Source of the DNA: Takakia lepidozioides
Lineage: Eukaryota > Plantae > Bryophyta
Direction of reading: 5' to 3'
NCBI GenBank assembly: GCA_030704615.1
Contig: CM060732.1
Coordinates: forward strand, 40,176,001-40,240,000
Length of the DNA stretch: 64,000 nt
Below are positions 19,300-51,150 of this stretch, piece after piece. A program made the position numbers and the translations under genes. The notes below the pieces were generated by a model that saw nothing but the letters and a program-made list of their open reading frames with translations, did no database searches and was not told the DNA's origin. Position 1 is the first letter of the stretch. Each line of letters starts with the position of its first letter.

Positions 19300-19571
19300 C
19301 TTGCTGTGCTGGCCACTTCTTCAAAGACTATGGGCTGTCGGTCAATCTTTCTTAAACTGAGATCATGGTTTTTAATGGCCATGCGGATCACAGATTCCAC
19401 TATAATGAGCAGGACATTGAGGTTGTCAAATCCTATACGTACTTGGGTCTGGTTATCCACCCACCCAAATTCCAGTTTGCCTCAACTGCTATGGACAAAT
19501 TGACGAATGGTAGGGCTGCCTCCATTCGCCTCCAGGCCAAATGTAAACAGAGCGCAAAAGTAGCTCTTTGA
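19300..19571 (+). mobile_element. LINE reverse-transcriptase fragment
   Basis: MVFNG...EQDIEVVKSYTYLGLVI matches the YLG box at the C-terminus of non-LTR RT. Confidence 0.6.
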
Positions 19572-19907
19572 TACCGTTGTCACCCACCGCCACTTATGGC
19601 TCTGAGTTATAGACATCTGGTATCCCAGGATTTTGTCAAACATCTGATGTGCATCCACGATGTCTCTGCATTTGATGTACATGTTGATCAGGGTGTTGTG
19701 TAGAAACACGTTAGGTTTGAATCCAGTTTGGATAATGTGGGAATGCACCTGCTTTCCTCTGCCATGCCTTTTGTCTTGATGCATTTACAGATTTGATAGT
19801 ACATAACACGAAACACAGACATACACTACACATTTGCGTCCCATGCATGTGTAAACCCATAAGAAAGATAGACCCTGTGTCTATGGGATAGGGAAAGGAG
19901 AACGTGC

Positions 19908-20062
19908 CTGAATCTCAATGAGAATCATTGAAAAGGAATATGCAAAAGCAATGTTTCCAAGAGCATTACAAATGGCCCATAGCTTCTGAGCATGGGTAAC
20001 GAAGCCCAAATTGGGATCGCCAATCAGAACCCCCGTCAAAGTTCCATGTGAATGATCGCTTT
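19908..20062 (-). pseudogene. Captured single exon of an amino acid permease (AAP) gene
   Basis: HGTLTGV...AQKLWAICNALGNIAFAYSFSMILIEIQ is the conserved AAP segment. It is flanked by an AG acceptor and a GC donor; no other AAP exon was seen. Confidence 0.8.
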
Positions 20063-23000
20063 CTGTGAACATCAAACGCCCTCCTATGTTAACCTATTTG
20101 CAAGCAAATGGTCTGAGTCCCTGCCGGTAGGTCGAGTGCAAATGATTCAAGGGTACGTGGATAAAGCAACAACATACAGGGAAAACAGTACTCCATCCAT
20201 GGAAAGCCTCCTGTCCAACCTGCCATCAATCTCTTTTCCTTCCCCAAATTGACCCGAAACTGGCCTCGATCATAAGTGCTTGCAAGAAGAAACATGCAAA
20301 ACAATGAACACTGTACATGTAGACAGGCGTAAGTATCTGAATCTGCTGAAATGCCTCCTTCATTCAAAACGAGCAGAGCCTCTTTCAGTTGTCTTGCTTC
20401 ACATAGTGTCCTCACTAGTCCACAATTCTTAGAAAAGATCTTGTGGACTTCTGTTCTTGGCCCTCTTTTGAAATGGGTGGCATGGTGGCAGTGGTTGATT
20501 TTATGGACTGTACTGCTGCTGCTGCTTCCAACTTGACCATTTGCCTGTGCAGGTTTCTTGTAGCTATTAATCCACAATGCCTCATTGGTACTCTTGTACT
20601 TCAAATGTAGCCCTCTCGAATGGATCTGGAGCCACACTCCTTACCTGTCTTCTATTCATGCTTCAACAACAACCATTCCACAGGTCCATGCTCTGCATAT
20701 GTTGTGACCATTGCACCCCATGACACCACATTGCGGTTATCTATGATGTTACACATTTCCTTTGCATCCTTGATGCTCCCACATTTGGTGTACATGTCCA
20801 CAAGGGTGGTACTCAGAATCATATTTGGTACAATTCCAGCTTTTTGGATGTCAGTGCTCATGATTTTTTCTGCCATTTTCCAGGGTTGCCGTTGCACTCC
20901 ATCACATGACATCTCGCTTGGGGGCAATCACTCCCTTATTCGCATCCTCTATGCTCCCACATTTGGCAGACATGTCTACGAGCATAGTAGCTAGGATCAT
21001 GTTTGGTACAATCCGAGCTTTCGCAATGTCAGCATGGACATGTTTGCCCTTTTCCAGGGCTGCCACGCAGGCACACGCCTTGATAATACAAATGTGACCT
21101 GGTTGGGCATCATCCCTTCCTGCATCATTTGCTCATCAGTCTCTCAAGGCATTCCCACCACAACCCTGCAATCAGTATATTATACGGGATCAAACCTCAT
21201 TTAGGGATTTTGTCAAACATCTGATGTGCATCCACGATGTCTCTGCATTTGATGTACATGTTGATCAGGGTGTTGTGTAGAAACACGTTAGGTTTCAATC
21301 CAGTTTGGATAATGTGGGAGTGCACCTGCTTTCCTCTGCCATGCCTTTTGTCTTGATGCATTTATTGATCAAGAGACAGGCGTAAGTATCTGAATCTGCT
21401 GAAATGTCTCCTTCATTCAAAATGAGCAGAGCCTCTTTCACTTCTCTTGCTTCACATAGTGTCCTCACTAGTCCACAATTCTTAGAAAAGATCTTGTGGA
21501 CTTCTGTTCTTAGTCCTCTTTTGAAATGGGTGGCATGGTGGCAGTGGTTGATTTTATGGACTGTACTGCTGCTGCTGCTTCCAACTTGACCATTTGCCTG
21601 TGCAGGTTTCTTGTAGTTATTAATCCACAATGCCTCATTGGTACTCTTGTGCTTGAAATGTAGCCCTCTCGAGTGGATCTGGAGCCACACCCCATGCATG
21701 TCTTCTATTCCTGCTTCAACAACAACAATAACTGTGTAGATTCTCAGCACCTGACACTGACAACCTAAAATCTATTTACCACACACCCCTACCTTGGTAC
21801 ACACTATAGTCCTATGCTCAATTGCTGACAAGACTTCAAAAATATGTTGGGAGAGAGGGATGATGGCCATTAATTCATCTTCTTATCTACATTTGCTGTA
21901 AAATAACTGGCATGCACCTTTTTGCCTTGTTTGTCCCACCATTGACTGGGGTTTGAATTTACGTACTCCTTCCAAAGCTTATTCTCTGTTTCCAATTTGC
22001 AGATATATGCCTGCAACCCCATTGGAAACGTGCAAAAACACTCAGAACCAACATGAATTCACTGGATGAGCTGAATTCCAGAACTAGACATCTGAAAAGT
22101 AGGGATGAATCTGACAAGAGGGAAAAACCAAGCCTAAAGTTTTGAAAAAGAAGATGGCCTCACCGTGTTCTGCTTGAAACTTGTGTCATGGAAGCAGCTA
22201 GCTTTTCTTTCATTCGAGGAGGATTCAACCAACCCTCAATCTGTAGGACACTTGATCCACACTGCTGGTGTCTGTACTCTAGTAATCTTGGATTGGCCTG
22301 TGCAAATCCACTGGGGTGCAGTTGAGCAGCAATAATTTCAACAAAGCATCCAGGCTTCCAATTACCTTCTAAACACCAGGAAAACCTTGGGCAATACATT
22401 TCCATGGCCTGCTTAGAAACCATTGAAATAAACACTTTCGCATAACAAAATAACTCCACCACCCAAGAAAAGCCCCACCTGGCCATTGCGGTTGTCCCAG
22501 CGGTGAAAGATCTTTAAAGGACTCTTGCCAACACTGTTCCATGCTCCATGGTTGACCTTCATGCTAGAAACTCCAAGAGCATGGCTAACGCATGCACCCT
22601 TTTGACAGGTTACGCTCCCGCTGGAAAATTATGAACTCTTCAGAATCTCTGTAGGAGACAGAGCGTTTTTGTCATTGTCGTGACCCCCGGCAACTATAAC
22701 CGTGTTCCCAATAGCTCCACAAGCAAAGAAAGAGCGGGTGGTGGGCATGTCTGCATACCGGCTCCACATTTGAGTGAAAAAAATATACGTATAAACTGAC
22801 CTGAGATTTGTGTTTTATGCTTCAGTTCAAAATGGCATCATTACCAGCTTTCTCAGGTATTTGATTGGTTACTTAGAGGGGAAATTATGTCTTGCTTGCA
22901 GACTAATCTCTTTTGCATCAATGCAAGTGTTGTATGTTGTTCACATTAGGAGATTGAAGTTCTAACTGGAAGGGGGGCAAATGCAGCAGGCATCAGCAAA

Positions 23001-25009: not shown

Positions 25010-27090
25010 TCAGAAGCTTAATTTCATATTACGTGATTGCAATGGGCTCAAGTTCATATTACGTGGTTGTAGTGGGATTCTTGTCACAGCAGGGGGACGT
25101 AGTGGGCAAACCACAAGGTGGGCAGTGTCCTCGCCACGGGCCTTGGCGCGACACTGCTCCATGGCGATGCGTTGATTGTACCTGCATATGGGTGGAGCAT
25201 TAATGCCGCAGTGAGGCGCCAAGTATCCGTTAGGGGGAATGAGGTGATTGTTTTTCATTGCAGAATGCAGACGATCACATGTCGCTACACACGCCTTGGT
25301 GCTCCAAATCGCATCGAAAACCTTCTTTTGGGCTCGCTCTTGCTGTCGGAATCGCTTCTGGGCTGCCGTCTCTTCCTGCTCAGCAACTCGTTTCATCTTG
25401 GCAGCCATTTGCTCTTCCTTCTTCCATTCACGTGCTCGGGTAGCTATTTCTTTGAGCTTAGCCTTCTGTTCTAGTGCAACTAAGTAGGTGTCTAAAGTCA
25501 TCATAATAGATTTACTATGATCTATGATTGGTTCATTTTCATTTCTGATTGCCTATGTGTGCTTGCAGGTGCTTCTGGGAGAACAAGGAACCGAGAGATG
25601 GTAGATGGACGTCCACCTGACGTCGGTGATGGCACCGTATGTACAACTTCGGTCGTATCCACCTGACCTGACTCCTCAACGCTGCCGTCTTGAATCAGCT
25701 GTTCCTGTTCATTATGGCCAGTGTGTTCAATGTACCCTCTGATAGGTCCCAGTGTAATACGAGATCAATCGTTAACGATTAATCATGAATCATCCAATAT
25801 GGGAACTGTTGGTTCACCCTTTGAACCATTTTATATTGACATCATACTTGTCTAGTAACTTTAAGAGGACATGTACAAGACACTCGCAAAGTTTCAAATC
25901 AATCCAAAATCATTTGGCAGGGGAATGATTGGTTCACCCAGAGGCAATTTCAGGGGGCTGCACTAGCAATTGCCATTTCACAGGCTACAATTGCAATTTG
26001 AGGGGCTGGAATTGCCATTTCAGGGGGTAGAATTGTAATTCGAGGGGGTTGGAATTAAATTTCAGGGGCTTCAATTGCAGTTTGAGGGGTTGGAATTGAC
26101 AATTTCAAGGGCTCAAATTACAATTTGAGGGGATTCTATTTTGATGAAGTAGTGGTGATGGTCTTCCCGTGTCTCAGGTATAATATTGCCCAAGATCTCC
26201 TCGACGTGCAATTCAACAAACTCGTGTTCAACCTCCTCTGCTGGATTGTTGTCTTGGACTGTGGCATGTGACTCTATTACAGCTTGTGGTGGTGTTGGCA
26301 TGGTCTGCTCCTGTCGTTCGGGCTGCGTGAATGCATTGCTAGGGCCCATGATCTTTCCTTCCATCGCATGTAAATTAAGGGGCCAAATTCCTGTGGATTG
26401 GAACCCCTTGGCTATGTTCTGACGTGTGAGTGCAGTCTTCAAGGCCAGGCTGACCCACTGAGCCAAGTCCTCCTTCTGGGCCCCCTTTCCTTTGTGAGCC
26501 TTGCTCCAAACGTCCCTGTACTTTCTGAATGCAGTTTTAAAAGGCTTAAACACGGCCGCATCAAGGGGCTGCAATGCATGTGAGGTGTGAGAGGGAAGGG
26601 TGATCAGATTCAGACCTGCTGATCTAGCTTGTCTAACCACGTCTATAGTGACATGTGAATTATGACCATCAAGGATCAATAAATGTCGATTTGTCACACT
26701 GACCTCATTGCCCATGGCCTTTGCTGATTCCAGGAAATGAGAAATCCACTTGCTAAATAGTATGCTAGTCATCCAAGTTTTCTTTTGCATTGCCATCGTT
26801 GCTCCTGACTCACACCTTGCAATGTAGTTCCTACTGAAGCGTTTTCCCTTGAATATATAAAAATTGGGTATGTGACCACTTGCTGCATTCATGCAGGTTA
26901 GTACGCTGAGCCACTCTCGTTGGTCTGGCGTAATGGAATGTACAACTTTTGTTCTAGTTTTGGCAAGCACCACAGCTCCGCCATTTCGTCCAGCTTGGTA
27001 GCCCGATTCATCACAGTTCCAGATCCTGCAAGCATCATAGTTGAACTTGGTATAGATCAACTCTAGGTTGGTGTAGAAAGATTGAACGTT
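25010..27090 (-). mobile_element. pogo/Tc5 (DDE_1) transposase, 5'-truncated and interrupted
   Basis: IWNCDESG...WMTS...LLILDGHNSH...LPSHTSHALQPLDAAVFKPFK in ORF 26113-27201. A K/E-rich C-terminal part lies at 25010-25504, separated by a ~0.4-kb insertion. Confidence 0.85.
25940..26135. repeat. ~22-bp minisatellite (CAATTTCAGGGG...GGAATTG)
   Basis: About 8-9 diverged copies visible. Confidence 0.7.
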
Positions 27091-28251
27091 AGCAGGTGCT
27101 GCCCTCGATCGACCGCTGCCACGGCACCGGCAAGTGCCTGATCTAACCAGTTTCCATTTTTCCTCTTCCTTGGAGTTGCTCGTTTGGGTCAGCCACCCCA
27201 ATATCGAGCAGGTGCATGTGCAGGTGCAAGTGTTGCGTTGTCATTGGAGTTGGGTGGTTCTAGTACATCATGTTCAGCCAGTGTAGATGGGATCAGATCT
27301 CGTATGTTAGTATCACCATTAGTATCAAGACCTTGTCCAACACTGAATTCATGTACACCGCTCCACGGATCTTGGGCCCATTGGAAATTTTGATCACCAT
27401 CTTCACTTTCAGTCGTATCGTCATGTGAATGTCTGTCATTGTACTTGTCTGAATCATGCTTTGAATCAGGCTCTGAATCGTTGGAATCACTATTTGCAAG
27501 ATGAACAATGTTGCTCTCTCCATCTACCTCACTATCAGGAAGCAACTTGAATGCCTGAGAAGGCATGTAATTCAAGTCCATGACCATGGCTCCACTCCAA
27601 ATCCCCCTTCGTCTCTCCTAGTTGACTTGAACACTATAGCAGGCAACACAAATCTAAAGATACTCGATACTCAACAAATACATTTCATTGATCTAAGTAA
27701 GTAGGTTGACGGCAGATGATACAAAGTGAGCAGCCGGCCAAAGTGAGTAGTGGGCCCCATGCATGTAAGTTGTAGGGGCGCTTGATTGAGTTCAAATCGA
27801 TTGAGTTCAAAATTTGAACTGCGCGGCTACTTTCTGCAAATGAACCAGCCGTCGTCTAGTATTGAAACCAAAATCTGCCCCATAACTGCGCAGCCACTTT
27901 GTTTAAATGAACCAGCCGTCATCCACTATTGAAAACAAAATATGCCCCATCTCTGGTGGGATTGTTTGGTAGGTGATTAATTATGTGCAAATCGTGCTTA
28001 GTGTAATCTGCCAGCTTTAGTGATAACCATGCAATTATAAATATAGTAAGTACATGAATGCGTTGATACTGGGTCACCAAACTACCATATCTGTAGGCAA
28101 TTATGGCCTTTGGTAGTTCCTAAGCAAATCAATGAAATCTGTTGATCCAGTCAAGGGCATCAGTTGTCACTTTTATGTACAAAAATAGGGCTCCATTCAA
28201 GGTCACACACACATTTAGGTGATGATGCATCACCCTTGGTTGGCGACCATG

Positions 28252-29921
28252 GGGGATTGCTAGTCCGTGAGCGGCTCACATGAGCGGAAAGATGCGTGAG
28301 CGGGAAGATGCCAATCCGAGATCGGAAAGATGCTCACGTAATAGGGTGCATGGGCCTACAATCGCGGATGAGGAAGCCCCGAGAGACCTGTTTCTGCGGG
28401 AATGAGTGTACATATAATGCGTACTTGGATGACCCTGGATGACTGTTGGATGAATGTTGATGAATAATGGATGAATGATGGTTGAATAATTCATGAATGG
28501 TTGAATGCGAGATGGCTGATGGATAGACATATGCTTCGCAATGCATGAACAATGGATGAGTGGATGGTTAAAGACTGGATGTATTATCGAGGGTCATCGC
28601 AGGTACTTCCCCGGAATGAAGATATGGTAGATGTACCTGAACCATACATTCAGAAAACACAGATGCAGCAGGTGCTTGTTAATTCCCATTAAACCCCCTT
28701 GTAATCAATGTCGCGTTGATGCAAGGTTGATCCCTGAACTTCCTAAAAGACTAAAAGACACAAAACACTAAGCAAGATGAAGATTTATTTCCCGAAAGAG
28801 GCAATTGAAATCCATAGCATAATCAAGGTTGTGTTGACGCAACCTTGATTGTGTCCCATACAAAATGTAAAAAACAGTGCAAAAATGATGTTTTCATTTA
28901 TCAAATCAAGGTTGATTTGCATCATGCGACTTCAATTTTTTTTTTGGGAAAAAGTATGCTTTCATTTCTCAAATCAAGGTTGTGTCAACGCAAAGTTGTT
29001 TTGCATCTTGCGACTTCAATTTATTTTTTTCTTTTATCTATTGTTTTTGGAAAAATGATGTTTTCATTTCTCAAATCAACCTTGCATCAACGCAAGGTTA
29101 ATTTGCCCATACAAAATGCAAAAAATAGTGCAAAAAGGATGATTTCATTTCTCAAATCAAGGTTGATTTGCATCCTTCGATTTTTATTTTTTTTGGTTTT
29201 TTTTGGTTTTTTTGTTTTTTTTGGTTTTTGTTTTTGAAAAAAAATGTGTTCATTCCTCAAATCAACCTTGCGTCAACGCAAGGGTTGATTTGCATCTTGC
29301 GTTTTGTTTTGTTTTTTTTTTTTTTTGGAAAAAATGATGCTTTCATTTCTCAAATCAACCTTGCGTTGACGCAAGGTTGATTTGCATGACCACCCAAAAA
29401 ACAAAAACATAAAAAAAACAAAAAAACAAAAAACAAAACCGTTATCATCCACTTCCATCCAGAAATCAACCTCACGTTGACACAAGGTTGATTTCAAGTC
29501 CTCGGCAATCAACCTCGTGTTGACACAAGGTTGATTTCAAGTCCTCGGAAATCAACCTCGTATTGACACAAGGTTGAGTTCAAGTTCTCCGAAATTAACC
29601 TCGTGTTGCTGTCATCCATGCTTCATTCATCCATCTTTTGTCATCCTGCATTCATTCATCCATTCCATTAATCCTTAAGAATTTCGCCACACATTCCTCT
29701 CAAATTTTCATGCATGGAACTCGACGTCTTAGGTCCCAGGCATCGTATGTTACCCTCCGTTCCACTCAACATTGCCCCCACGACAGTAGGTCCTGCTTTT
29801 CTCACGGCTATAGGCTTTGCTTCCCTTATGTGCTCACGCTTAAGAGATCTGCTCATGCTTAACGAAGTATGCTCACGCTTAGTGCGCTAAGCGTGAGCGC
29901 GCTCACATGCTAGCTTCCCTC
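28252..29921. mobile_element. Non-autonomous Mutator-like element with an internal palindrome array
   Basis: Perfect 9-bp TSD GCGACCATG (28243-28251 and 29922-29930). Imperfect TIRs G..GCTAG...GTGAGCG.GCTCAC, with inverted GGATGAATG/CATTCATCC tracts inside them. Confidence 0.8.
28700..29610. repeat. Array of palindromes AAATCAACCTTGCGT(TG/CA)ACGCAAGGTTGATTT separated by A/T tracts
   Basis: Perfect 15-bp arms at 29352-29383, plus many variant or half copies. Confidence 0.85.
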
Positions 29922-31628: not shown

Positions 31629-31910
31629 GTCTAATCCGAAGTGACTCCTTCAATGCCTCCTCAATAACCTCAATAACCTCAATAACCTCCTCCGCTATTG
31701 CAGATTTAGCCTGTCAAAAATATGAGCGTGCTTTCATGAAGTAGGAGCACTGAAACTTCTGTGAGAAATACTAGCTCACATCAAACATCTTATCTACAAG
31801 TGGATGTCAGCTAGTGATGGATATGTAATTAGTGTCCATTGAAGTTGGCTTCCAGTTGCAATTACACATTATCTTTGGACCAGACAATGCATAAAAATAT
31901 AGAACCATTT

Positions 31911-32217
31911 TGTCGTGCGCATACATATCGCTACACAACTACATCGTTGTCCAAAACCACACAATATATGTGCACACCAAACACTAGTCTATCACTAGTC
32001 CACCACTAGTGCACCACTAGGCTGCCACTAGACAACCACTAGTCACCACTAGTATAGCCACTAGTCCACCACTAGGCTGCCACTAGCCACCACTAGTGCA
32101 GCCACTAGTCCAACCACTAGGCTGCCACTAGCCACCATTAGTGCAGCCACTAGTCCACCACTAGCCACCACTAGTGCAGCCACTAGTCTATCACTAGGCT
32201 ACCACTAGCCCATCACA
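31911..32217 (-). repeat. Probable 3' LTR, mostly a CCACTAG tandem array
   Basis: TG...CA ends (TGTCGTG / CATCACA), next to a G-run PPT (CCCCCC at 32222-32227 on +). No second LTR was found. Confidence 0.6.
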
Positions 32218-32458
32218 ATCACCCCCCTAGCTGGCGCTTAGGTCCCTCTGAGTCTAGGTAGCCACAAGATGCGATAGTGGCCATAGCCTCACTAAGTCCT
32301 CCACCACTGTCCATACTACACTCAAACTCAATAGATCAAGAGGCCGGGTACAAGAGTTGCCCCATCGTTAGTCGTCGTCTTGCAACCTGTGAACTTGAGC
32401 TTGAGATCTTGGGTATTGACTCCTATGAGCTTGGCCTCCCATGTCTTGTGAACTGCCA

Positions 32459-32610
32459 CTATCCCAAGCAGTGTGGACATAACCAATCTCCATCAGGAAC
32501 CCTCTCAAGAGGTGGTGTCAAGCATCCCATGTGCCAACCTCTTGAGCATCGATTACACACCAGCATAGTGGCGGCACCACGAGCATGCCCACATAGCATG
32601 CAACGCAATC
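32459..32610 (-). other. PHD finger at the C-terminus of Gypsy pol
   Basis: CMLC...MLVCNRCSRGWHMGCLTPPLERVPDGDWLCPHC is a canonical C4HC3 PHD. Confidence 0.92.
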
Positions 32611-35600
32611 CTGCAGGTACCACTACAAGGTTGGGATCTATCCTCCCATCCACATGTGGAAGGTGACATGACGCACAATTACGCACATGGTCCTTCCTCG
32701 ACCTTCCAGAATCAACACTCCTGAAGGCAACACCTCCCTGACCCTTAGACTCACACGTCTTGCTGTGACATCCAAGGTCGTAGGCGCTGTCTGCTGCAGG
32801 TACACATAGTCCCAAGGGTGGAAATGTCGAACACCTGGCCGATATCCCCCTCCACGTATAGTGGCATACCTCAATGTGTCTCGGTGTTGGGCAATATCAA
32901 GATTCTCAAAAGCCATAGGCATGACTCTCTTGAACAACTATGTCCGCTGGGCACATGTTTGTGTCCACACATCCGGATCATCAAGGTTGAGGACTACTGC
33001 AGCCTCCCTGCGAATAGACGCAGGCAAATCTGGCTCTCGGCCAAAGAGAAGGAAATATGGTGAGAAGGAGGCAAGTGATGCTTGCTTGCTAAACCTGTAG
33101 CCCATGGCTAGCCAAGGTACCTGAAGATCTCAATCTCCTAGGTGTTCGTTTTGCAAGCCATACTTGCGCAAACCCCTCTTTACCGTCTGCACCACTCTCT
33201 CTGCCAAGCCATCGGCCTCAGGATGTCCCGAGAAGTGGTACGGTGGTCTATCAAGGCTTTATCACACAAAGCCTGAAACTCCCCCAAGAACTCTCTCCCT
33301 TGGTCCGTAAGTACCTCAGCTGGAGCACCGAATCGGCTAAATACACGATCCAGGAATGCATACGCAGCCCCCTCACTAGCCTTGTCAGGCAATGGAACCA
33401 ACTCAATCCACTTGGAGAAGTGCTCCACCATCACCAACACATATCTGTGGTGACGCATCGTCAGTGGCAAAGGCCCTGCGAAGTCAAGACTCCACCCGTA
33501 GCCCAATCCCATGATGGGTAATGGATGCAACTGTGGTGTAGGGGCATTGAATGAAGCATGCACCCTGTCACACACCATGCACCTAGCCACAAACTGTTGC
33601 ACCTCTGTGTGCATACCACGCCACCAATACTGCCCCTGCAGTAAACTATGAGTACGTCGCACTCCAAAATGCCCCAACTCCTCATGGGCATGCTGCACTA
33701 ACCGTGCACGCTGTGTTGGGTGAGGCACGATCCTCACCCGACCATCCTCCCACACTCGAAGCAGGTGTATCCCCTCCCACTTGAACCTCTTGACTCGTTG
33801 CAGGATCCGATCCCTCTCCTTGGCAGTCACACTAGCTGCCATGTCTCCAGTGCGGAGGTAGTCCAACACAACCAAATCCTCATGTATATCTCTGGCACCA
33901 CCTAGCTCATCTCTAGCCTCAGGGTCCTCAAACACTCCGTCTACAGCCATCCCTATTGTAGGTCCAACCTGACCTCCCGATGCCAAGATACACAAAAAGA
34001 CAGATGCATGTCATCCCGACACCATCTCCTCGTCCGTCTCACCATGCCACCGAGCTCCAGTGTCATCCTGCTGGCTCGTGCATGGATTGCGACTCAATCC
34101 ATCCGCATCCATATTGACCGAACCCGGTCGATGCACAACCTGAAAGTCATACTCTTGGAGTATAAGTGCCCACCGTGCAAGCTTCCATGTAAGCTTGTCT
34201 GACTCCATCAACCACTTGAGTGGCTGGTGATCCGTGACAAGGGTGAAGAGATTGCCGTATAGATAACACCTGAAGTGTGCCACGGCCCACACTGCAGCTA
34301 AGCACTCCCCTCATATGAGTTATACTTAGACTCTGCAGCGTTGTTCGAGCGGCTAGCATAAGCCACTACGAACTCTCTTCCCTCATCATCCACCTGTGTG
34401 AGCACCGCTCCAAGCCCCAACATGCTCCAATCTGTATGCACCTGAAAGGGACGCCCCCTGATAGGTCGTCTCAAGATCGGCGCCGAGGTCAACCTTGCCT
34501 TGAGCTCCTGAAAAGCTCGCTCTTGCTCATCTTCCTACTGCCACTCCTGGTCTACCTTGGTCAGCTTGGTTAGAGCCTTTGCAATAGCACTAAATCCCTT
34601 GACAAACCGTCTATAGTAGTTTGCCAACCCCATGAAAGCTCGAACTCCGCTCACATCCGTGGGACGTGGAATCTGTGCGATGGCCTCTACCTTAGTCTGC
34701 TACACCCCCAATCCTCCATGATATATCATGTGGCCCAGATACTTAATCTGGTTGTGGAAGAACTTGCACTTCCCCGGATGTAATTTCAATCCGTGCGCTC
34801 TCAAGCGCTCAAACACCACCTGAAGGTATCTCTCGTGCTCCTCCACCGTAGCATTAAAGATGATGATGTCATCTATGTAGCATCGAGCAAAGTCCACCCC
34901 TGCTAGAATCATGTCCATGACTCTCTGGAATTCTGCAGGAGCGTTCTTAAGCCCGAATGGTAAGAATCGCCACTGATATAGGCAATCCTTCCCGTGCTCA
35001 TTGATCCCCCAGAATGCCGTCTTCTGCTTGTCTGCCTCCTTGATCGGCAACTGGTGATATCCGGACCGTAAGTCCAAAGTGCTAAAGACCTTGGCATGCC
35101 CAATGACATCAAAGATCTCCTCCGGTGTGGGCATGGCATACTTATCAGACTTGGTCTGACGATTTACAGGCCGGTAATCACCGCACATACGTCTCTCCGT
35201 CCAATTGCCATAGACATCTTTCTTGGCTGGCATCACCGTGGCTGAAGCATCCTCTCCACCAGAGAGCTCCACCAAACCAGTCTCCCAGGGATCTTGAGTC
35301 CTCATCTGAATCAAAGACCTCTCCATGTCACTGTATCTATAGGGTCTCCGAAAGATTGGCGTGTCCGTGGCCAACTCAATACGAATCTCCTGACCCTTCA
35401 ATGCTCCCAAATCCTTCAAACTGAAGGCAAAGCAATTTATGTAAGCCCTCATGAACCGCCGTATACGTCGTCTCTCTCCTCCAGTGACAATGGGTCCAAT
35501 GTCAGGCTCCTAATTGCCCTCCGTAACTGCAACCTTAAGTCCAGTAGACTTAGAGGTAGAGGACGCGTCCCGTGGTTGCTATGCCGCAACCTCTTGAGCA

Positions 35601-35899
35601 GTACTCCCTACCTGCTCAGTCAATGACAAGGCCTCATCCTGCCCCATCATCTCATCCTTGAGGACCTCCTCAACCCGAGAAGAATCCCCAACCTCATCCA
35701 TCACAGCCGCCTTGGCTGCCAACTCTCTCTGAACCTCGAGCACCTCCCACGTGTGCCATGGATGTCTACACCCCGTGGTCCTCACCGGCTCGCCCCCACT
35801 CACTGCCTGTACCGTCTCGGTAGGCAGAGAGACCGTCAAGGGAAGTGCACTCCGCACTCTACGTTGCTCAGCCATAGCCAAGCTGATAATCCAAGCAAT

Positions 35900-36830
35900 T
35901 TAGCAATAAAGCAATTTAGATCCATTGCTTGCCCCAACACCTGGCGACGTGATGCCTCAGAAAGAGAAGGCATCGCCGTGGTCCCAATGGAAAAACCCAT
36001 AGCCCGCTCTCGCTTGTCGGCATTAGACTCCACTAACTGCTGGAACTGAGCATCCCACAGGAGGCCAGGTCCACTATCCCGGAAAGCATGCGATCCTGAG
36101 AAACTGAGCAGTGTAGGTAGTGCTGCTCGTGGTTGACCCACCTTGTTGACCACTGCCAAAGGCGGACGGTCATCGTGTCTTACACCCTGAGACTGCCTCA
36201 TTGTGTCCAAGATGCTATCCACTGTGAGGTGTGTTGGCCGCTGCACCCCATCAAATGCACGCTTAAGCAGTGTGGGTGGCATCAAGTTAGTCCACCATAG
36301 CCGTGGACGATGAGCCCGTGACCCCACTACAGCTGTATCCAGCAACACTGCTCACCCAAGCCACGACCGGACTTGATGCACACTGGCCATCACCCTGGCC
36401 TGAGACTTGCCCATCAGTGGCACATTCTCCAAGATGTATGCTAGAGATACAACTTGATGAAGCTATAAGTGGTACAAAACCCGCACCATCTCCCAAAACA
36501 GACCCGACCTCGAGTCTCGCAATCCATTGCCATGCCCGGCTGATGAATGCCCTGCCACTACCAAATCAATAGAGCCAACCCGCTCCAAATCCTGCGCCCC
36601 CAGCAAAGAGAAGTCTGCTGGCAAGGCCTGCTGATATCCACGAACCATAGACACCGGCAACAACTCAGGGTACTGCTGCACCAACTGAGCAACATGGCAT
36701 AGGGAGATGCGTTGTGTAGTCTCATCCCTCTCTACATACAAGTAACGCTGTACTCGTACACCTGCCTGTAGAACAGCAGCCAACCCGGTGCTGATCCCGT
36801 CAAACAAGTCCAGAAGGCAAATGCCTTCAT
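35900..36830 (-). pseudogene. DNMT3-like C5 cytosine methyltransferase domain within Gypsy pol
   Basis: Motif I LLDLFDGISTGL; II YVERD; IV IDLVVAG (PC missing); SGLFWEMVRVL; VI YILENVP; VIII AHRPRLWWTNL; IX-X ERAMGF...SRRQVLGQAM. All lie in one frame, broken by two stops. Confidence 0.88.
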
Positions 36831-39044
36831 CCGGACACGCAACACGATCGGTGTGGTGTCCAATGGTGACAACTGAGGTGGTCTTGGTACAATCCCCGCA
36901 CTGTCCTCCTCTCCTGACGGTACAAAAGCCTCTACCCAGGCTTGTTGCACACGACAATCAGCAACCCGATGTAAATCCTTGCTCGAGCCCCACAATGGAG
37001 CGTGAGCAACCATGGCAGACAACTCTGCCATGCCATACATGTCATCCTGCTCTCCCAGAGGTGACACATCTTCTGAATGAGTGTTGCCATCCAACAACTC
37101 TCCAAGCCAAGTCACTGCAGCTGTGAATGCTGCCAGTGTTGGTATCTTGCCACGCTGGGCAACCGCAACTCCTCCTATGAACGTCACAGGGAGCTGCACA
37201 TGCCGGCCCTCCCCTAACTACCATCCAGGCCTATATGAAGCTGACTCCTCCCAAAAATCTAGGGTGAAGCCCATGGGATACAACACTGCCCCACCAACAA
37301 GGACATCGTATGAGACCGCGTCTGTCACAATGGCCTTGGCTCTCATCATTGAACCATCTGTAGGATGATCCGGCTGTAGTCTGATAGCCAACTCACGCCG
37401 CGTCATGCCCCGAGCTTGTTTTGATCCTCCCAGAGATGTCTGTATCTGGAAAGGGCACGGCTCCATATCCGCCTCCGTGAGGCCCAAGCCTGCAACAGCA
37501 GCTCTGCCCAGCATCAATGGCTGAGCTCCCGAGTCCAACAAGACTCGCAGTGGCCGGTACCTCTTGCCTGCCGGTCCACACAAATAAAAAATGTCATCCT
37601 GGTTGTCTAACATGACAACTCTAGGTGTCACCATGGCGCGTTCAATGGCTGGCCTAGCTGGCAGCTCTATCAACCTGGCAGCTGCAGCTTGCCATGGTGC
37701 CGCCGTGGCAGTCTTGATCCTCACATCCGAGGATCCCTCCGGCACTACACCTCCCACTATCTCCGCAGAAGATGAAGTAACCACCCCACTCTCACAGAGT
37801 GTCGCTGCTAGCCTGAACACCTCAGCTGGTCTTACCCCTGGCGTCGCAATCATGGTAGCCGAGAACAATGGAGCCTGGCACACAGCTATGGCCGCCCCCA
37901 GCAACACTCTAGCTGCCGTAGCCTTGGCAACACTAGGTAGTGGTGCTGCCCGTGTAGCTCTCCCCAATGGCATAGTAACCTCCGCCTCGGTAACAGTCAG
38001 ACGAGAACTAGGTGCCATGGACGGCGTCAACACTGTCTCCGCCAATGTGAATGACTGAAGAAGCCTGGCCTGACGGCTTGCCTCCCCATGTTGTGGATCC
38101 AACTCCACCTCCGCACCCCGTGGCTCAGGAACTCGTGCTGCTCTTCGAGTCACTGCCGCAGCTGACTCCACTTGTACTAGTGGTAGTCCCGCCCCGCACA
38201 TAGTGGTAGTGGTAGTGCTACCCGACACTAGTGGTAGTGATGCCCCACCCATCGTGGTAGTGGTAGTGGTGCCCCACCCATAGTGATAGTGGTAGTGGCA
38301 CCCCTCACTAGTGGTAGTGCTGCCCCGCACATGAATCCCATGCCTCCCATGTTTCCTCCCTCAGGAGCACGAGGTGGACCATCCAGCCTTGGAGCCGGTA
38401 CCACCTGAGCTGTGGCCATGGCAGCGAGTCTCTGCTCTAGCTGCTGAAGCCGGTTGGCCATGCCTTGGTTACCACCCTAACCTCCGCATCCTTGGCCATG
38501 TTGAGCTTGCCCTTGGCCTGCACCTCGTGCCTGGCCACCTCGTCCTCTCTGGGCTGCTCCACCTCGCCCCCGGCCACCATTGTAGAATAAATGATTAACA
38601 AATCAGAGGTTTGGTAAGAAGTGGGTGGTAACGTTGTGACTAGGTGATATGCATTACAGGGATGAGGTTTGGGATTCAATTCGTCACATTGAGTAATTGA
38701 ATGTGCAATTAATGTACTTTTTCATCTCCAAGATCCTCGCTCCGCTCCCATGTTCCCAGTGTCCACTCCTCTGTCCCCTCCTTGTTCTCAATCTCGCTCC
38801 CCTATTCCTGGTCCCCATTCCCTTCCTCGCCCTATGGGAAGTGGCTTGCTCCCCTGTTCCCGCTCCCTGTTCCTCTCTTTGCTCCCTGTCCCACTATAGG
38901 GTTGTGGGTAGGGGAGCAAAATTGGAGAATGTTTGGGAACATGGTCCTAAGGTGGGGAGCATGAGGAGAGAACATGAGGTGTGGAGTCCTCCCCATCTTC
39001 CCCGAGCTCCGACCAACGGCCCCCACCCTCTCACACAGCTTGCC

Positions 39045-42000
39045 TTAAACTCGTTGGGTAAGCATAGTCTTCGTCGGAAAGCCGACTCGCAATGTTTTAG
39101 CCGTGCCAGTAGCATATATTTGTTTTGTTGCCAAATCATAGAACATGATGGGGCTACTAAAAAAATTATCCATCGTTGCAATATGGCCCTTACCCTCAAA
39201 TCCTTCTAGCAACCTTGTCACCACTCCATATCCACTGCCATGGGTCATATCATTCCCCTCATAATTCCCAAGATAAACCTCTAACTTTTGAACATATTTA
39301 GCCTGATGTGCCAGCCAAACACCACACCTTTAGATCCCACTTCACGGGCTTCTTACTCAGGTATTGCTGGATTCTAGCATACTTGCCCTTGTATTTCACC
39401 ATTTGCTCATCCATAGTCAAATTGGGCTTATGAAGGTGGCATACAAACCATTTAGTGCATCCAGCAACTACCTGGATTTAGCTAACATATCAAAAGCAGG
39501 GTCAGTGTCATCCGTGCACACACCCCTGTTGTTAAGGTGGAGGCACCTCATAATTGCCTTCCATCGGTTGCGGACATTGTGCACATTATGGAAGAGCAAT
39601 TGAAAAAATGCATTGTTGGCTTTTCAATACAATCTAGTGCTAGGCAGTTTTTTGATGCCCATGAAAATGTGAACAACAAGCCAAGCCTTCAACTCCGGAG
39701 TGTGATAGGGTACCACTATCTAGCTCCTTTCAGATTCCCAAGAATGTTTTCTGTCATTGCATACAAGTTGGTAATGGTGCAAATTGTGTGCAGAACTGAC
39801 CGTGACCAAAACAAATTGAAAAAATCAACTGGATTTGCCTCATCTCCAAAAGACAGACGAGGACTGGACTCCCTACCTAACCATGTAATTTCATGCAATT
39901 CAGTAGCTGATGAGTTCCACATGTCATCACCAAATAAATTAGAATGACCCCAGTGCTCTCAATGTTCAGGCATTAAAACATCCTCACGCTGTGGATTCCT
40001 GATGTCCACACAGTAGTCCATCAAGTCAGGATTGTACTCTATGTCAACAAGGTCATCATCTTTAGAATTATAATCACAATCAGAATTTGAATCAGAGTGA
40101 TATCCTTCACAACTAGGCAATTCGGCTGTAGGATCCAGCCCTAAGAGCTCAGAAACAGTGCACAACATGGATTCATCAAGATCACATACAACACAAGATT
40201 GTGATGACAGCACATACACTCCAATGACACCAAAGAAATACACAGTGTGATTCTTTGTACCATTCAAGATGTCCCAACTCGTGTCTACCACAATGCCATA
40301 TCGAAATTTCTCAATGTTGCTGGACGATGCCACATCCTGCGGTGCAACTCGGCCAGTGCCACTTTCACTATGGATCCAAAATTCCCATGTCCTCCATAGT
40401 TTGGGAGTGACCAGGAAGATCTGTTTGAGGGTTCTGAGAATTGCGCAGGAGTAGTTCGAATTGACCATCTTCTCACTCATAAAATCAAAAAGGGGTTCAA
40501 CACGATTACCTCTCTCTCGTGCCAACTGTTTCAGCATCATCGTGGCTGACAGAAGATGACTGGAAATCAGGCCAAACCCAAGGGGATCTCCCTTGTCTTT
40601 CCAATCTACCCAGCCCAAAATCTCTACACAATGGCGCCTAATTAACAAGTAACGAAAATTAGAAGGCTGCAGAAATGTAGGCCATCGCATACAAATAAGT
40701 GGCTTCAAACACATGAGGTAGTCTTCATTGATGCACCCCAGTATCTTGTCCACTTGCTCGGTTGAGGCACTTTGTGCGCACACCCATTTGACAATGGTCA
40801 AAGCCTGAGTGTCCGAATGTGCAGGAGCAAGGGGAGGCAGAACACCCGAATCCATCTTATGGATGCAAGTTAGAGATGAATCCACCCAATTCTCTGTGCA
40901 TACACACCCAGTTGATTGTCTCTCTAATTGCGCACACAAACAGGTCCACCTTCAATTTACGAGCTCCATTGTTGGTGAATGCAATGTCGGCCCAAGATGC
41001 TCAAACACCCTATACTAAGGTATGTGGCATTTGCCCAAATTGCAGGTTTCTTCAACATAAGACAACATATATGCAGCCTAAGATGCAAAAACAGAGCAGA
41101 CCACCAACGGCAACCTGTCAAGGCATCACCAATGGCAACATGCAAGTCTCTGCAAAGATCACACACGATCATAGCGCAACGCGCAAAAGGAAAGAAAAAG
41201 ATGAAGTAGAACATGCGGGAGCAAGCCAAGAACGTCGCAGAACCTGACCCCACTCCCTATGCAGCCAAAAAAAAACCCTAACCAAAAAAAAAAAAAAAAA
41301 AAAACCCTAATCACTCATTAGAATCCGGAGTGCCATGTGGCTGGCATCCCACCATAAAAAAATGGGCCCATCCGTTACAATCCGAGAAAACAAAGCCAAA
41401 AAACTCAAGATGAAGAGCAATTTCATTAATGATGGATTCTTTTGAAGGTCCAAAAATGAGAGATGGAGGGCCGGACGAATGGGATGGCGCAGAAAGGGTG
41501 TGGGTAGGGGTAATTAGTGGATTCAAATGCCACTCACACAATTCGTTTGGTGTGTGAAGGTGGATTCATCTTTAATTTTTTGAGTCAGTAAAAATGCTTA
41601 CAATGGTAACAGATTGCTGTTTGTTTGTGTGAGCTCGGTTGGGGCAGGCCAATGGGTTCAAATCCCACTCGCACGCTGTAATTATGTATGTTTATGTGGG
41701 TTCATATGTGGTTTTTGAGTCTGTAAGGATGCTTAGCCATGGTCACAAAGCTGCTGGCACAAACAACCACATGCAGCCAGCAACAAACACAAACGCAGAG
41801 ATAGCACATATACAGGTGGAGGTAGCACTGACTCACATTCACCGAATTTCCAAAATGCCCAATTTTTTACCCAATCAACTTTGACCAAGTGTCAGCACCT
41901 GAGTTTTTGCCCAAATTCCATTGTTTTTTTTGGGTTGGATGGAAGATCCCACCATGATAAACTGGGAGCAGATTCACTGAAATTGGAAATCATCCCAACA

Positions 42001-46889: not shown

Positions 46890-49800
46890 TCATTTGAAGC
46901 AACACATTTCCTTCCATGCATGTCGCTCGTTTCACCTTATAAGGACAAACTGTTGGTGTATTAAATTGTGAATGCAACAATCCTGGAGAATTATGGGCAT
47001 AAACACCAAGGTTCTTGATGACACAGACAGGCGTCCCAAGGTACTTACTGATCACTCCAAATCAAAGGCCAGCTTCCCACTGTGGTGCAAAGAGAAGATT
47101 TCTTTGTGTTCCTGCAATACAAAGCGCATTTCAGCATGGATCTGGGTCTTTGGAACCTGGAATGTGTGACCTGAGACCTGGGGTTCTGGAATTAGGACCT
47201 GGGATTGCCATACAGAGCCCTCCGCTAGATAAATCATGGAGGGCGGCCCATTGGGCTGTAGATTACTTGGTAGCTAAGGATATTAACTTGTGCATTACAG
47301 AGATGTGTTAGATGTTGGAGATCAATGCTAGGTCTGTAACCCCCATTAAACCACACATGCAAGTACCTGCTACTACACAGCAAACTCTATTGTCTATTTT
47401 TTTTGAGCGTACTATGATGACATTTCCTCAAATAATGCTTTTGCAGATCATCCTAGAATCACGATATTATCATCCTGGTAACAAAAATAGATATTTGGTA
47501 ACTTACCAGTCCCCTTCATTGGCACAGACAATCTCTTCGGCTCTGCATTGGATATCCCCAATTTGTGGGTGCAATTTATCCTCTACGAAGAATGTTTTCC
47601 GGCAGTTGACCTCAATGGAGCAGTGACCTGCCTCCTTTTTGACACACTGTCGATCATTTTTCTCACCTTTGCAGTATCATCCCACCTGCCAGCTGCAGCA
47701 TAGATGCAACAATAGGACATACGTTGCAGCGTCCTGTGGATCCCAGTTAAGAAGGGATTTTGCCACACGTTCTGCCACCTCCACATTGCCATGAATTCTG
47801 CAGGCACCAAGCAAGGCCCCCAAAACAGCAGCATCTGGCTTGATTGGCATTTTATTAATGAAGTCCTCTGCTCATCCAATTGCCCTGCACGTCCAAGAAG
47901 GTCCACGATGCAGCCAAAATGCTCCAAAGTAGGAGTGAGGCCATGATCTTGACTCATTGAATCAAAGTAGTGACAACTTTTATCCACCAAACCCACATGG
48001 CTACATGCAGAGAGAAGACATAAAAGTGATACAATCTGGATCAAAGCCTTCCTGTTGCATTTGTTCAAATAGTTGGAGGGCTTCCATACCGTACCCATGC
48101 TGCGAATATCTGGCAATCATTGTGTTCCATGAGACCACATTTCGTTGAGCCATACTGTCAAACACTTGACGTGCATCTGTCATGCTCCCACACTTGGCAT
48201 ACATGTCAGCAAGGGCAGTACCCAGCATGATATCTGGAGCAATTGCAGCTTTGATGATGTCAGCATGGATCTCTTTGCCCTTGACCAGAGCTGCCAGGCT
48301 GGCACAAGCATTGAGAACACCAATGAATGTGACCCCATTGGGTGTCACCCCTTCCCATATCATCTTCTCATACATCTCCAAAGCCTCCCTACCCATTCTG
48401 AGAATATCCAGCTATCATGACACTCCATGTGAACACATCCGGCTTCAAGCCTTCCTGTGGCATGTTTTCAAATAGTTCCAGAGCCTCCCTTCTACACCCA
48501 TGCTGAGCATATCCTGCAATCATTACGTTCCATGAGACCACATTTCGTTGGCCCATTTTGTCAAACACCTGGCGTGCCTCCTTCATCCTCCCACATTTGG
48601 CATACATGTCGGCAAGGGCAGTCTCTAGAATGGTATCGGGAGCAAGTCCAGCTTTGCTGATGTCAGCATGGACCTCTTTGCCCTTTGCCAGGGCTACCAG
48701 ACTTGCACACGCTTTGAGAACACAAATGAAAGTGACTTTGTCGGGTGTCACTACTTCCCGTCTCATTTTTTCATACATCTCTAACGCTTTCTTACCACAC
48801 CCATGCTTGGCATATCCTGCGATCATGGTGCTCCATGAGACCACATCTCGCTGAACCATACTGTCAAACACTTGCCGCGCATCCTTTATGCTTCCACATT
48901 TGGCATACATGGCAACAAGGACAGTGTCCAGAATGATATCTGGCGCAATTCCCACTTTGCAGATGTCAGCATGGACCTCAATGCCCTTTTCCAGGGCTGC
49001 CATGCTGGCACATGCATTGAGAATGCAAGTGAATGTGACCTTGTTGGGAATCACCCCTTCCTGTATCATTTGCTCATACATCTTGCAGACCTCCCTACCA
49101 CCCCCATGCTTGGCATATCCTGCCATCATTATAGTCCACGTATAGACATCTCGCTCTGGCATTTCGTCAAACACTAGGCGGGCATCCACTACACTTCCAC
49201 ACTTTGCATACATGTTGACCAGGGTGGTGAGGAGAGAGATGTTTGGCTTTAATCCATTCTGAACAATGTGGGCATGCACCTGCTTTCCCTCTGCTAGGCC
49301 TTTCATCTTGATGCACTCCAGCAAGAGACAGACATAAGTGTTGGAGTCAGCTGCAATGCCTCCTTGGCTCAAAATGTGCAGTGCCTCCTTCAGTCGTCCT
49401 GCCTTACATAGGGTCCTCATATTGCCATCAGTGCCAGGAACTGCCTCTCTGGGCCCTCTTTCAAAAGCAGTAATCATCGTGGAGGTGCTTGATTTAGAGA
49501 ACTGTGCCTGATTCAGCCCTGCCATCCTGCATGACCCAAAGCTGTAGCACTCAAACTCACGTATTCCAAAGCTCCATCTCCCAAAGAAAGATTTCTTCAT
49601 GAAGCCACAGTCCTCAATTAAGAGGGTTTTGTGCAAAATCTGACACCAGCTACAATACTAGCAATCCTTATATTCATTGACTACAAAGAACCACTTCTGG
49701 TAACTGTATTCACCTTCACACTGACACAAAGGTACAACAGAAAACATCTGGTTAAAACTCCCCACTTGTACGATCTCCAACACAACTTTTCTGCTCCATT

Positions 49801-50822
49801 CTGTGCAAAGGGAGAGAAGTAACAATCCCATCATTTAAGTCATAAGATATCTGCTCTTGGAATAGGCAATGGGTGGATAGTGGCCTCCCTCGACAAAATG
49901 ACAAATATTGAGGACCACCCGCAATAAAGAGAGCACGATCATGACTTAGGATTAAGGGAATATCATACTGGAAGTACCCCCATGATCTCCCTCCAGCAGT
50001 GCTGACAGCAAACTTTTGCCTAGCTGCTTCCAGCTTCTCTAGTTGACCATCTACCCACGCAGGTCTCTTGTAGGTATCAACCCACACTGTATCGTTGGCA
50101 CTCTTGTTCTTGAAATCTGGTTCTCGAGGATGGATCTGCACTCCATCCTTGCCACCTTCAGCTATTCCTACCTCAACAACACAGAGCTTTGCCTCGCCAC
50201 AAGGAGTTGGCAATAACAACCTGTAATTTACAAAGCAATCACTCACTCCTGCTTCCCAGACACTAGTCCCTATGCTCAGTTCCTGGAATTATCATAAGAA
50301 AGTTATATGACGTCCACAGGGCCTTTGGGACAAAAGAGCGACGGAAAGTGCTATCTTAGAATTGTCAGAAAGGTTTTCAAGACACTTGGCTGTCTTCTAC
50401 TGACAAGAAATCACCTTAGTGTATCGATTGTCCCACCACTGACTGGGGTTTGAACAAAATTCCCTCCAAAGCTTCTCCTCGTCTGTACATTGGTCTTTCT
50501 GATACGAATTGCCTGAGTTGGCAATTGCCTTGCCCAATGTAACCACGGGTGGATGCGGCCTCTCCTTTACCTCCGCCTCCAAGTAGCTTCCCTTCGCAAG
50601 CCCCAGTCCATAAACCTCCCCCTCCTCTGCTAATCTCCAGTGCCCCGAACTTGGCTTCAAACTGGTCGAAACAAATACGAACGAAATGCCAGTTGGAAAA
50701 TGCAGAGAAGCGTACCCCCTACAACTTCTTGAAGAATTCAGCCCAGACCGAGATCTGCAAGCAGCGCTGTGAGGAGAACCTGAGATGACTGGAGAAGATG
50801 TGGAGAAAGCAAAGGCAGACAT
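46890..50822 (-). pseudogene. Organelle-targeted PDF-motif + PLS-PPR + E/E+ + degenerate DYW protein, frameshifted
   Basis: Ser-rich N-terminus; LWREFCSNPSQWWDNRYTK | IHPREPDFKNKSANDTVWVD..P.WV; PLS repeats at 48001-49430; E domain (GACRIHG...YAAAGRWDD); DYW remnant HHSGKLAF...GTPVCVIKNL. Frameshifts at ~48395, ~48015 and ~47870. The true start may lie further upstream. Confidence 0.85.
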
Positions 50823-51150
50823 CACTGCCACGGCTGTTTCTTCACCATCACTATTCTCCCTTTTCCCACTGCTCTTCACTCGAACTTGACATTTCCCCCA
50901 ATAAATAGAAGAGATACGGTATGTAACTTTCGGGCTCTGATATGCTGGCAAATTGTCGCATGCTACAATCGATGGTAGTGGGTGGCTAGCTATGCAACGT
51001 TGGGAGAGACTTCGAAACGATCTCAGAACAGGTAGGCTACTTGCAACTACCTGCACATAAAGAGAACTGAACACTCACTATTCGGGCCAAATCGATGAAT
51101 TTCCTTGTTTGTTCAATGAGTTGTAGTGCTCCACACTAATCTCAAAATGG

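Follow-up and report, generated by a model that had tools for sequence, protein, structure and literature searches.

Can a retrotransposon of a land plant encode a DNA methyltransferase (DNMT) of its own, and what would such an enzyme do for the element? The question is raised by a stretch of 64,000 nucleotides from Takakia lepidozioides (contig CM060732.1, positions 40,176,001 to 40,240,000 of the forward strand; the whole stretch is called the window here), in which an earlier reading of the letters alone, hereafter the original prediction, placed a Gypsy retrotransposon with a DNMT3-like domain at 32459..38330. Transposons bearing the class of enzyme that is used for their own silencing have so far come from algae, organisms in which manipulation is difficult. 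In the accessible parts of the report by de Mendoza et al. (2018; PMC5890265), KnitGypsy-Dnmt3 is described in Klebsormidium nitens only, and neither "Marchantia" nor "Sphagnum" occurs in the readable supplements. No report of a methyltransferase-bearing retrotransposon from a land plant was found in the literature searched, with subscription papers and repeat databases outside its scope, or in the accessible parts of PMC11982613, PMC9033089 and PMC10952607. PMC12344493 and bioRxiv 10.64898/2026.05.21.726589 speak of "streptophytes" in their accessible text, and their supplementary trees might include land-plant rows.

Our results indicate that the region from 31911 to approximately 38580 on the minus strand of the window is almost certainly a dead member, lacking its 5' end, of a multi-copy family of Ty3/Gypsy-type retrotransposons with a DNMT3-like domain. 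Given its named bryophyte relatives and the algal relatives with the same domain order, this family extends the KnitGypsy-Dnmt3 kind to land plants.

A decayed Ty3/Gypsy element

Six-frame translation and Pfam searches recovered from the minus strand, in this order, the tail of Gag, a protease, the DNMT3-like domain, reverse transcriptase (RT), RNase H, integrase and a PHD finger. The C-terminal part of Gag (37561..38580, the position of the break being approximate) aligns to the Marchantia protein P0004 from residue 415 and is followed by an aspartic protease with the motif LLDSGA (37218..37560), for which the Asp_protease_2 match is weak in the window (E 0.004; E 2e-4 in the intact metagenome locus L048). 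A conserved linker (36843..37214; 28-39% identity to relatives) leads from the protease to the DNMT domain (35908..36831). Downstream lie the RT with the motif YIDD (34700..35506; RVT_1, E 3.6e-32), RNase H (34149..34696; RT_RNaseH, E 1.5e-17), whose coding frame shifts near 34305 and contains stops, and a DDE integrase comprising the H2C2 zinc domain, core and C-terminal part (32698..33719; Integrase_H2C2, E 4.2e-16; rve, E 9.4e-14), with frame changes near 33225 and 32700. The succession of protease, RT, RNase H and a DDE integrase is that of Ty3/Gypsy elements. Pfam detected no tyrosine recombinase family in the intact open reading frames (ORFs) of L048, where rve and H2C2 are present, and no Chromo domain in L048 ORF2 or in P0205, which carry a PHD finger instead.

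Five changes of frame and, apart from the stop that is shared by the family, nine stop codons are spread over this copy. The interval originally predicted lies within the element, but the element reaches further, and its 5' end, comprising the N-terminal ~400 residues of Gag and the terminal segment A described below, is missing. Residues 1-430 of three Marchantia proteins had no tblastn match anywhere in the window, and near-matches to the start of segment A, sought over 10 bases, numbered 5 in the window where 6.04 were expected. At its 3' side the element stops at 31911, where 66 contigs of the DNA run X1 show loose ends with low agreement. The profile checks proposed for the prediction bore out the RT and integrase, whereas the decayed DNMT domain alone stayed below the Pfam cut-off (17.2 versus 22 bits).

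The DNMT3-like domain

The C5 methyltransferase motifs of the original prediction, said to be ordered, on one strand and free of introns between protease and RT, were all located in one minus-strand frame: LFDGI (36807-36793), ExD in the form ERD (from 36732), DLVVAG (36567-36550), ENV (36429-36421), AHRPRLWWTN (from 36315), ERAMGF (from 36009) and LGQAMD (from 35937). The set is "nearly complete" in that every listed motif is present, but the Pro-Cys of motif IV is deleted near 36550, leaving a 5-residue gap in the alignment to K. nitens, and the domain has two in-frame stops and frame changes at both ends. Sister contigs of X1 carry extra letters at the motif IV deletion. To judge from its sequence, the window copy is catalytically dead, without the catalytic cysteine. 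No introns, one of the features that would have counted against the original prediction, were found in the DNMT domain.

The domain resembles DNMT3 more than it does DRM, DNMT2 or the C5 enzymes of bacteria, and its motif order is linear, in agreement with the predicted distinction from the permuted plant DRM. A profile built from 30 family sequences ranked DNMT3A first (5e-23), ahead of DRM (6e-11), HhaI/HaeIII (~6e-6) and DNMT2 (4e-4), and the best PDB sequence match of the window domain, with X at the stops, was DNMT3A (E 2.2e-7). In a structural search with the AlphaFold model of the natural relative P0041 (pLDDT 87), DNMT3A/B/C chains occupied all listed ranks, the best being DNMT3A (E 4.9e-19), at a structural-alignment identity to human DNMT3 of only 20-23% and with longer inserts. 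The DNMT3-like wording proposed earlier stands in this respect, but its motif I does not: LFGG occurs in 64 of 76 metagenome loci and none of those listed has LFDG, so that the DNMT3A-like "LFDGI" is probably an incidental, private change of this copy. The window domain is 69% identical to Calypogeia P0003 and 67% to Marchantia P0004. No Pfam match to DUF3444 or to other host targeting domains was found in the family ORFs of intact L048.

At the family level, the DNMT is under purifying selection, the window copy being without its PC. Motif IV reads PC in 68 of 78 loci and ENV is present in 75 of 80, while the motif VIII arginines are often altered (30 of 80 loci keep RPR). When intact or near-intact loci are compared, the ratio of nonsynonymous to synonymous substitution (dN/dS) of the DNMT is ~0.12 (0.031/0.259 for L048 versus L049; 0.16/1.34 for L048 versus L053), near the protease values; between decayed copies it is 0.5-0.7. 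Intact family members are thus predicted, with good probability, to encode active cytosine methylases. By its CG and CHG ratios the window copy could not be told apart from intact loci (CG 0.53 versus 0.55 and 0.70).

Retention and abundance of the family

The DNMT is an integral part of the element that has been kept family-wide. Of 441 confirmed metagenome loci, the best 80 were analyzed; where enough flanking sequence was available, the protease was found upstream of the DNMT in 48/52 loci and, downstream, RT in 49/56, integrase in 31/34 and the PHD finger in 26/28. Sister loci thus keep the domain in place, where copies lacking it had been named as grounds for abandoning the prediction. 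The family is also apparently very abundant in host DNA: 66,576 contigs of X1 aligned to the window, with a summed depth of 0.33-1.12 million over 31768-38741 compared with 351-6175 outside, and with comparable values over the DNMT (0.54-0.93 million) and over RT (0.76-0.82 million), figures that are depths and not copy numbers.

Beyond these close relatives, a profile search of 1.84 billion representatives returned 565 matches below 1e-30. Among the best 150 of these, 104 combine the DNMT with a retroelement domain in one ORF, the DNMT lying between RNase H and integrase in 92 and before RT in 12, which indicates that the DNMT moved within the element at least once. Motif IV in the same 150 reads EC in 77 and PC in 46. 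The second architecture, RT, RNase H, DNMT, integrase and PHD (P0032, P0033, P0165, P0178, P0199, P0327 and others; the 92 of the best 150), often has WECQ at motif IV.

Distribution and phylogeny

The 39 longer homologs include 18 named proteins of land plants (15 from Marchantia polymorpha, 1 from Calypogeia and 2 from Sphagnum), and the 120 shorter homologs listed, of 131, include 16 from land plants (Calypogeia, Marchantia polymorpha, M. paleacea, Riccia and three Sphagnum species) as well as Spirogloea. The search with the RT-to-PHD ORF of L048 adds, among 120 matches listed of 2374, a transcriptome ORF of Coleochaete, five proteins of K. nitens and many of Closterium. The K. nitens protein P0249 has the order protease-DNMT-RT-RNase H-integrase and the motif DLVVAGWPCQG, and the K. 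nitens DNMT is 42% identical to that of the window family (E 5e-47). No named row from Physcomitrium, hornworts or vascular plants stands among the matches listed, a weak absence because ORFs of repeats are often unannotated.

Phylogenies of RT (119 rows, quick search) and DNMT were built from family sequences alone. In the RT tree, the window groups with Calypogeia, Marchantia and metagenome loci (support 96), within a clade that also holds Coleochaete, L048 and L053 (99). The bryophyte clade of the DNMT trees has a support of 100, with the window outside the Marchantia-Calypogeia-Sphagnum group (97/98). In both trees K. nitens falls outside the bryophyte-Coleochaete clade, and in the RT tree K. 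nitens and Closterium stand apart from it, the deep nodes being unresolved. Marchantia groups with Sphagnum (94/94) and not with Calypogeia, and a liverwort-only clade, tested after the first tree and with P0043 and P0047 excluded, is weakly rejected (approximately unbiased test, p-AU 0.03). Protein identity among the liverwort, moss and window elements is 65-76%. The notion of a lineage retained from streptophyte algae holds as far as the algal relatives with the same domain order go, but the position of Marchantia makes purely vertical descent less certain.

Bacterial hosts were considered and rejected. P0060 and P0478 are labelled as a cyanobacterial-lineage metagenome-assembled genome and an uncultured cyanobacterium, but both proteins closely match the L048 retroelement, to near identity: in the DNMT tree P0060 falls with L048, and P0478 belongs to the cluster of P0203, which is 95% identical to L048 ORF2. 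They are probably eukaryotic DNA in bacterial bins. There was no sign of a viral home: of 14 candidates from a viral collection, a single one proved to be a relative, and this was a phage methylase with 36% identity. L081:1464-2380 encodes a phage C5 methylase with DNMT3-like wording that is split across two frames.

A conserved stop codon between DNMT and RT

An in-frame stop is found at the homologous site between DNMT and RT in 52 of the 57 evaluable cases (56 loci and the window); of the remaining five, two have a sense codon and three are shifted by an insertion or frame change. In the window, this stop is a TAG followed by CAACCA (35573..35581, minus strand) and ends the Gag-protease-DNMT frame. 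UAG-CARYYA is the readthrough motif of the tobamovirus type (accessible part of PMC3542737), and its exact form occurs in 4 of the 57 cases (the window, L048, L049 and L053) compared with 38 of 10268 background TAGs. In intact L048, two ORFs, of 1369 and 1047 residues, abut in the same frame, and L053 shares the junction. Annotated Marchantia and Calypogeia proteins end at the stop site or splice across it, P0004 and P0003 ending at the same place, 92 and 94 residues past motif X, respectively.

The conserved stop implies that the DNMT closes the Gag-protease frame, which suggests in turn a need for large amounts of the enzyme. Other retroelements, too, have stop codons between gag and pol (accessible part of PMC3441728). 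RT, RNase H, integrase and the PHD finger are predicted to result from UAG readthrough, which we consider likely. In Riccia sorocarpa, R1sor_014310 (P0106), with the DNMT part, adjoins R1sor_014311 (P0264), with RT, RNase H and integrase, an arrangement that fits a two-ORF layout.

Termini, integration and the PHD finger

Relatives of the window copy start with TGTCATG, in a segment A of ~340 bp, and finish with CAYGACA, in a segment B of ~115 bp. The window keeps only the 3' end, that is, segment B (31911..32221), which ends in GACA at 31911, matches the B of relatives such as L043 at both ends and is expanded in this copy by CCACTAG-type tandem repeats; just before it, the start of B being approximate, lies the polypurine tract GCTAGGGGGG (32222..32232), which is also present in L077 and L048 and, as a variant, in L053. 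Relatives have TG...CA ends, a short target duplication and the tract. Of the 10 loci with both ends, seven have the form A-ORFs-B, three (L065, L077 and L079) have A-ORFs-B-GC-A-B, and none has ordinary direct long terminal repeats (LTRs) at both ends. An exact 4-bp target duplication flanks 7 of the 10 loci (6 of 9 distinct sites), and two more have one mismatch; in a cross-pair control the figure was 2 of 90.

The ends are therefore permuted, unlike ordinary LTRs, which suggests an unusual integration route and means that LTR-based surveys would miss the family. The junction of B and A is the palindrome GACA-GC-TGTC in L006, L055, L077 and the distant L053, with variants in the likewise distant L048 and in L065 and L079. 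The sequence that follows A is complementary to a site within A, ~160 bases upstream, over at least 12 bases in 10 of 22 cases and over up to 24, as would be a self-priming site, which is known for Tcn1 (accessible part of PMC6317226). From the polypurine tract and the self-pairing site, we infer that the functional LTR is B-GC-A. The inserted copies would then have been opened at the palindrome inside the LTR, and such integration at an internal attachment site appears fairly probable. One- and two-LTR circles opened at the palindrome would give both forms of the ends.

The PHD finger lies at the C-terminus of the integrase (32468..32602, minus strand; Pfam PHD, E 4.4e-10). That of L048 best matches the fingers of CHD4, PHF12, PHF21A, KAT6A, KDM5 PHD1 and UHRF1, which we take to read H3 tails unmethylated at K4. 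A specificity for H3 lacking K4 methylation is accordingly predicted by homology and is somewhat favored.

Proposed mechanism and alternatives

These features can be combined into a mechanism, to which, as a whole, we assign a probability of roughly 0.6. In intact members, the DNMT would be made at capsid-like levels as the end of the Gag-protease frame, would likely be packaged in the particle and then released by the protease, and may there methylate cytosines in the newly made cDNA of the element itself; that this cDNA is the substrate is predicted at about even odds. Leaky readthrough of the UAG would yield the RT-RNase H-integrase-PHD product, self-primed reverse transcription would probably give an LTR of the form B-GC-A, and the integrase would cut the palindrome within the LTR and not the LTR ends, producing permuted insertions with 4-bp duplications, while the PHD finger may steer insertion toward chromatin without H3K4 methylation. 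A bolder version, in which an old streptophyte lineage has stayed alive into land plants, pre-methylates its own cDNA with a Gag-level DNMT3 and integrates via the LTR-internal palindrome through circle-like or internally cut intermediates, is rather unlikely to hold in full. If true, the element would be invisible to standard LTR finders and would provide a route to write 5-methylcytosine in bryophyte genomes without host machinery. Since Marchantia polymorpha, a genetic model, has at least 15 annotated relatives, the question of what the enzyme does for the element becomes directly testable, and retroelement DNMT domains may also inflate the DNMT counts of bryophyte annotations.

Several observations weigh against the mechanism. 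The window copy is missing its catalytic cysteine, and the isolated K. nitens DNMT domain gave no methylation in yeast, a result that its authors regard as inconclusive (accessible part of PMC5890265). The 80 loci are not independent, some being the same insertion (e.g., L065 and L079), and the host family was surveyed through short contigs only. The self-pairing run exceeds the shuffled maximum in only 11 of 22 cases, and L048 and L053, with 5' ends that may be incomplete, showed no such stem. Random opening of a two-LTR circle should also give a mirror form, which is seen in 0 of 24 5' ends, so that the two forms may instead come from internal cutting of a linear cDNA, from a scheme like that of PAT/Ngaro elements, from recombination between B1 and B2 or from a collapsed assembly. 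Most copies grouping with Sphagnum (a label that denotes the tree placement of metagenome loci) read TAR-CAA-CCC-ATG, with the last base of CARYYA mismatched and an in-frame ATG. Finally, the K. nitens protein P0249, like P0242, P0202 and P0213, is predicted as one frame from DNMT to RT, P0213 lying inside the same RT clade; since P0249 and a few unnamed proteins are predicted to be continuous, the stop is either lineage-specific or masked by gene models.

The enzyme might instead act on chromatin after nuclear entry, at the insertion site, on rival elements or on host DNA. Gag-linked production would supply far more enzyme than one cDNA requires, and the company of a PHD finger and a DNMT3-like domain recalls the ADD-DNMT3 pairing of animals. 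Host DNMT3 of bryophytes, moreover, performs de novo methylation of heterochromatin (accessible part of PMC6453930). However, the PHD finger and the DNMT are in different frames, Pfam found none of the host targeting domains, and the methylome of K. nitens is plant-like despite such elements (accessible part of PMC5890265), all of which makes a chromatin target improbable. Even less probable is a non-catalytic or RNA-directed role, in which the domain would, for instance, bind nucleic acid inside the particle or methylate RNA: the yeast result, the replacement of PC by EC before glutamine in 77 of the best 150 distant representatives and the FGG of motif I in most loci would suit it, yet the catalytic cysteine, ENV and the glycines that bind S-adenosylmethionine are retained under purifying selection, and the fold is nearest to DNMT3A/B and far from DNMT2. 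As for expression, re-initiation or a separate RNA could replace readthrough, as suggested by the ATG three codons past the stop in Sphagnum-grouping copies and by the Coleochaete transcriptome ORF, which begins at a methionine ahead of RT. We regard this as unlikely, considering that both ORFs are in frame and abut and that the four cases with the exact UAG-CARYYA have no ATG in the next four codons.

Concerning origin, horizontal transfer among land plants, as opposed to descent from an algal ancestor, is a doubtful but serious contender. The protein identities between liverwort, moss and window elements, the Marchantia-Sphagnum grouping with the rejected liverwort-only clade, and the lack of a named Physcomitrium, hornwort or vascular-plant row among the matches listed all speak for it; on the other hand, synonymous sites between the window and Sphagnum-grouping loci are saturated or nearly so, both the RT and the DNMT trees place the bryophyte clade among relatives from Coleochaete and Spirogloea, and old paralogous lineages yield the same pattern. 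By contrast, a retrocopy of a host methyltransferase nested here by chance, a chimeric assembly or a contig from an algal contaminant is very hard to credit, because the same order recurs at dozens of loci and also in genomes of named liverworts and mosses, where the contigs reach 49 Mb, and PLS-triplet pentatricopeptide repeat (PPR) genes are present in the same window (48389-49654; Streptophyta by homology). PLS editing factors mark land plants, so that these neighbors, too, point to a streptophyte land plant, which the position of the window in the trees suggests to be seed-free, and away from the contaminant that had been named as a possible objection.

Other features of the window

Elsewhere in the window, PLS-class PPR genes or pseudogenes occupy 47583-51074 and 18661-21771 (minus strand), after a WWDNR/PDFKHK-like motif that resembles the "PDF" motifs of OSB proteins; part of this region is duplicated at 97%. 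Near the 5' break of the element, at 39045-39326 and 39959-40951 (minus strand), lie part of a transposase of piggyBac/IS4-like type (DDE_Tnp_1_7, E 3e-14) and an ORF of 330 residues for which Pfam gave no match. Also present are the remnant of a DDE_1 (pogo-like) transposase at 25010-27240 (minus strand; E 2e-21) and, at 5448-10572 (minus strand), AT-rich ORFs resembling Helitron Rep/helicase (weak Pfam helicase match, E 0.005), enclosed by 55-nt inverted arms at 4991-5045 and 9286-9340. A Gly/Tyr-rich exon without a Pfam match at 59762-60091 (plus strand) looks to us like the first exon of an ASR (abscisic acid/stress-ripening) gene. Repeat arrays are found at 14940-16309 (~100-nt), 11276-12245 (~140-nt) and 28855-29608 (43-100-nt).

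Comparison with known systems

SymbioDIRS-Dnmt3 and SymbioLINE-Dnmt of Symbiodinium are likewise retroelements with a DNMT, and the DIRS-borne DNMT3 methylates CG de novo in yeast, but they belong to other retroelement classes and are reported to represent independent captures, whereas the window family has a DDE integrase (accessible parts of PMC5890265). EpiLTRs and DAM-LTRs are likewise of the Gypsy type and combine a DNA methyltransferase with a chromatin reader; their DNMT is, however, sister to DNMT4, they bear DAM together with a chromodomain, and DAM-LTRs are reported to be absent from Streptophyta (accessible part of bioRxiv 10.64898/2026.05.21.726589). The host DNMT3 of seed-free plants (PpDNMT3a/b) and animal DNMT3A/B have the same non-permuted DNMT3 fold and motif order, but the plant enzymes carry DUF3444 (accessible part of PMC6453930), which the window family lacks, its domain sitting in a retroelement.

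In the arrangement of its ends, the family resembles DIRS elements of the PAT/Ngaro type, whose split direct repeats follow the layout named A1-ORFs-B1-A2-B2; it differs from them in lacking a tyrosine recombinase and in having a DDE integrase, TG...CA ends and 4-bp duplications. The predicted self-priming is as in Tcn1, among the self-priming Ty3 elements Tcn1/Tf1, and none of the REXdb lineages is described with a methyltransferase, a term that does not occur in the accessible text of PMC6317226. In contrast to chromoviruses, a PHD finger replaces the chromodomain at the integrase C-terminus.

The closest known system is KnitGypsy-Dnmt3, with which the family shares Gypsy domains, an intronless, non-permuted DNMT3-like domain, the domain order seen in P0249, and purifying selection. 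A DIRS-like repeat layout is reported there, comparable, by figure legend only, to the split repeats of L065, L077 and L079. The PHD finger ("PHD" does not occur in the main text), the 4-bp duplication, the internal palindrome and the self-pairing primer site are absent from the text examined of that report. In KnitGypsy-Dnmt3, the DNMT is placed in Pol (accessible parts of PMC5890265), and P0249 is predicted to be continuous, whereas here the DNMT closes the Gag-protease frame at a conserved stop. The window family, finally, forms its own RT and DNMT clade, the deep nodes being unresolved, and lives in land plants, apparently at very high copy in its host.

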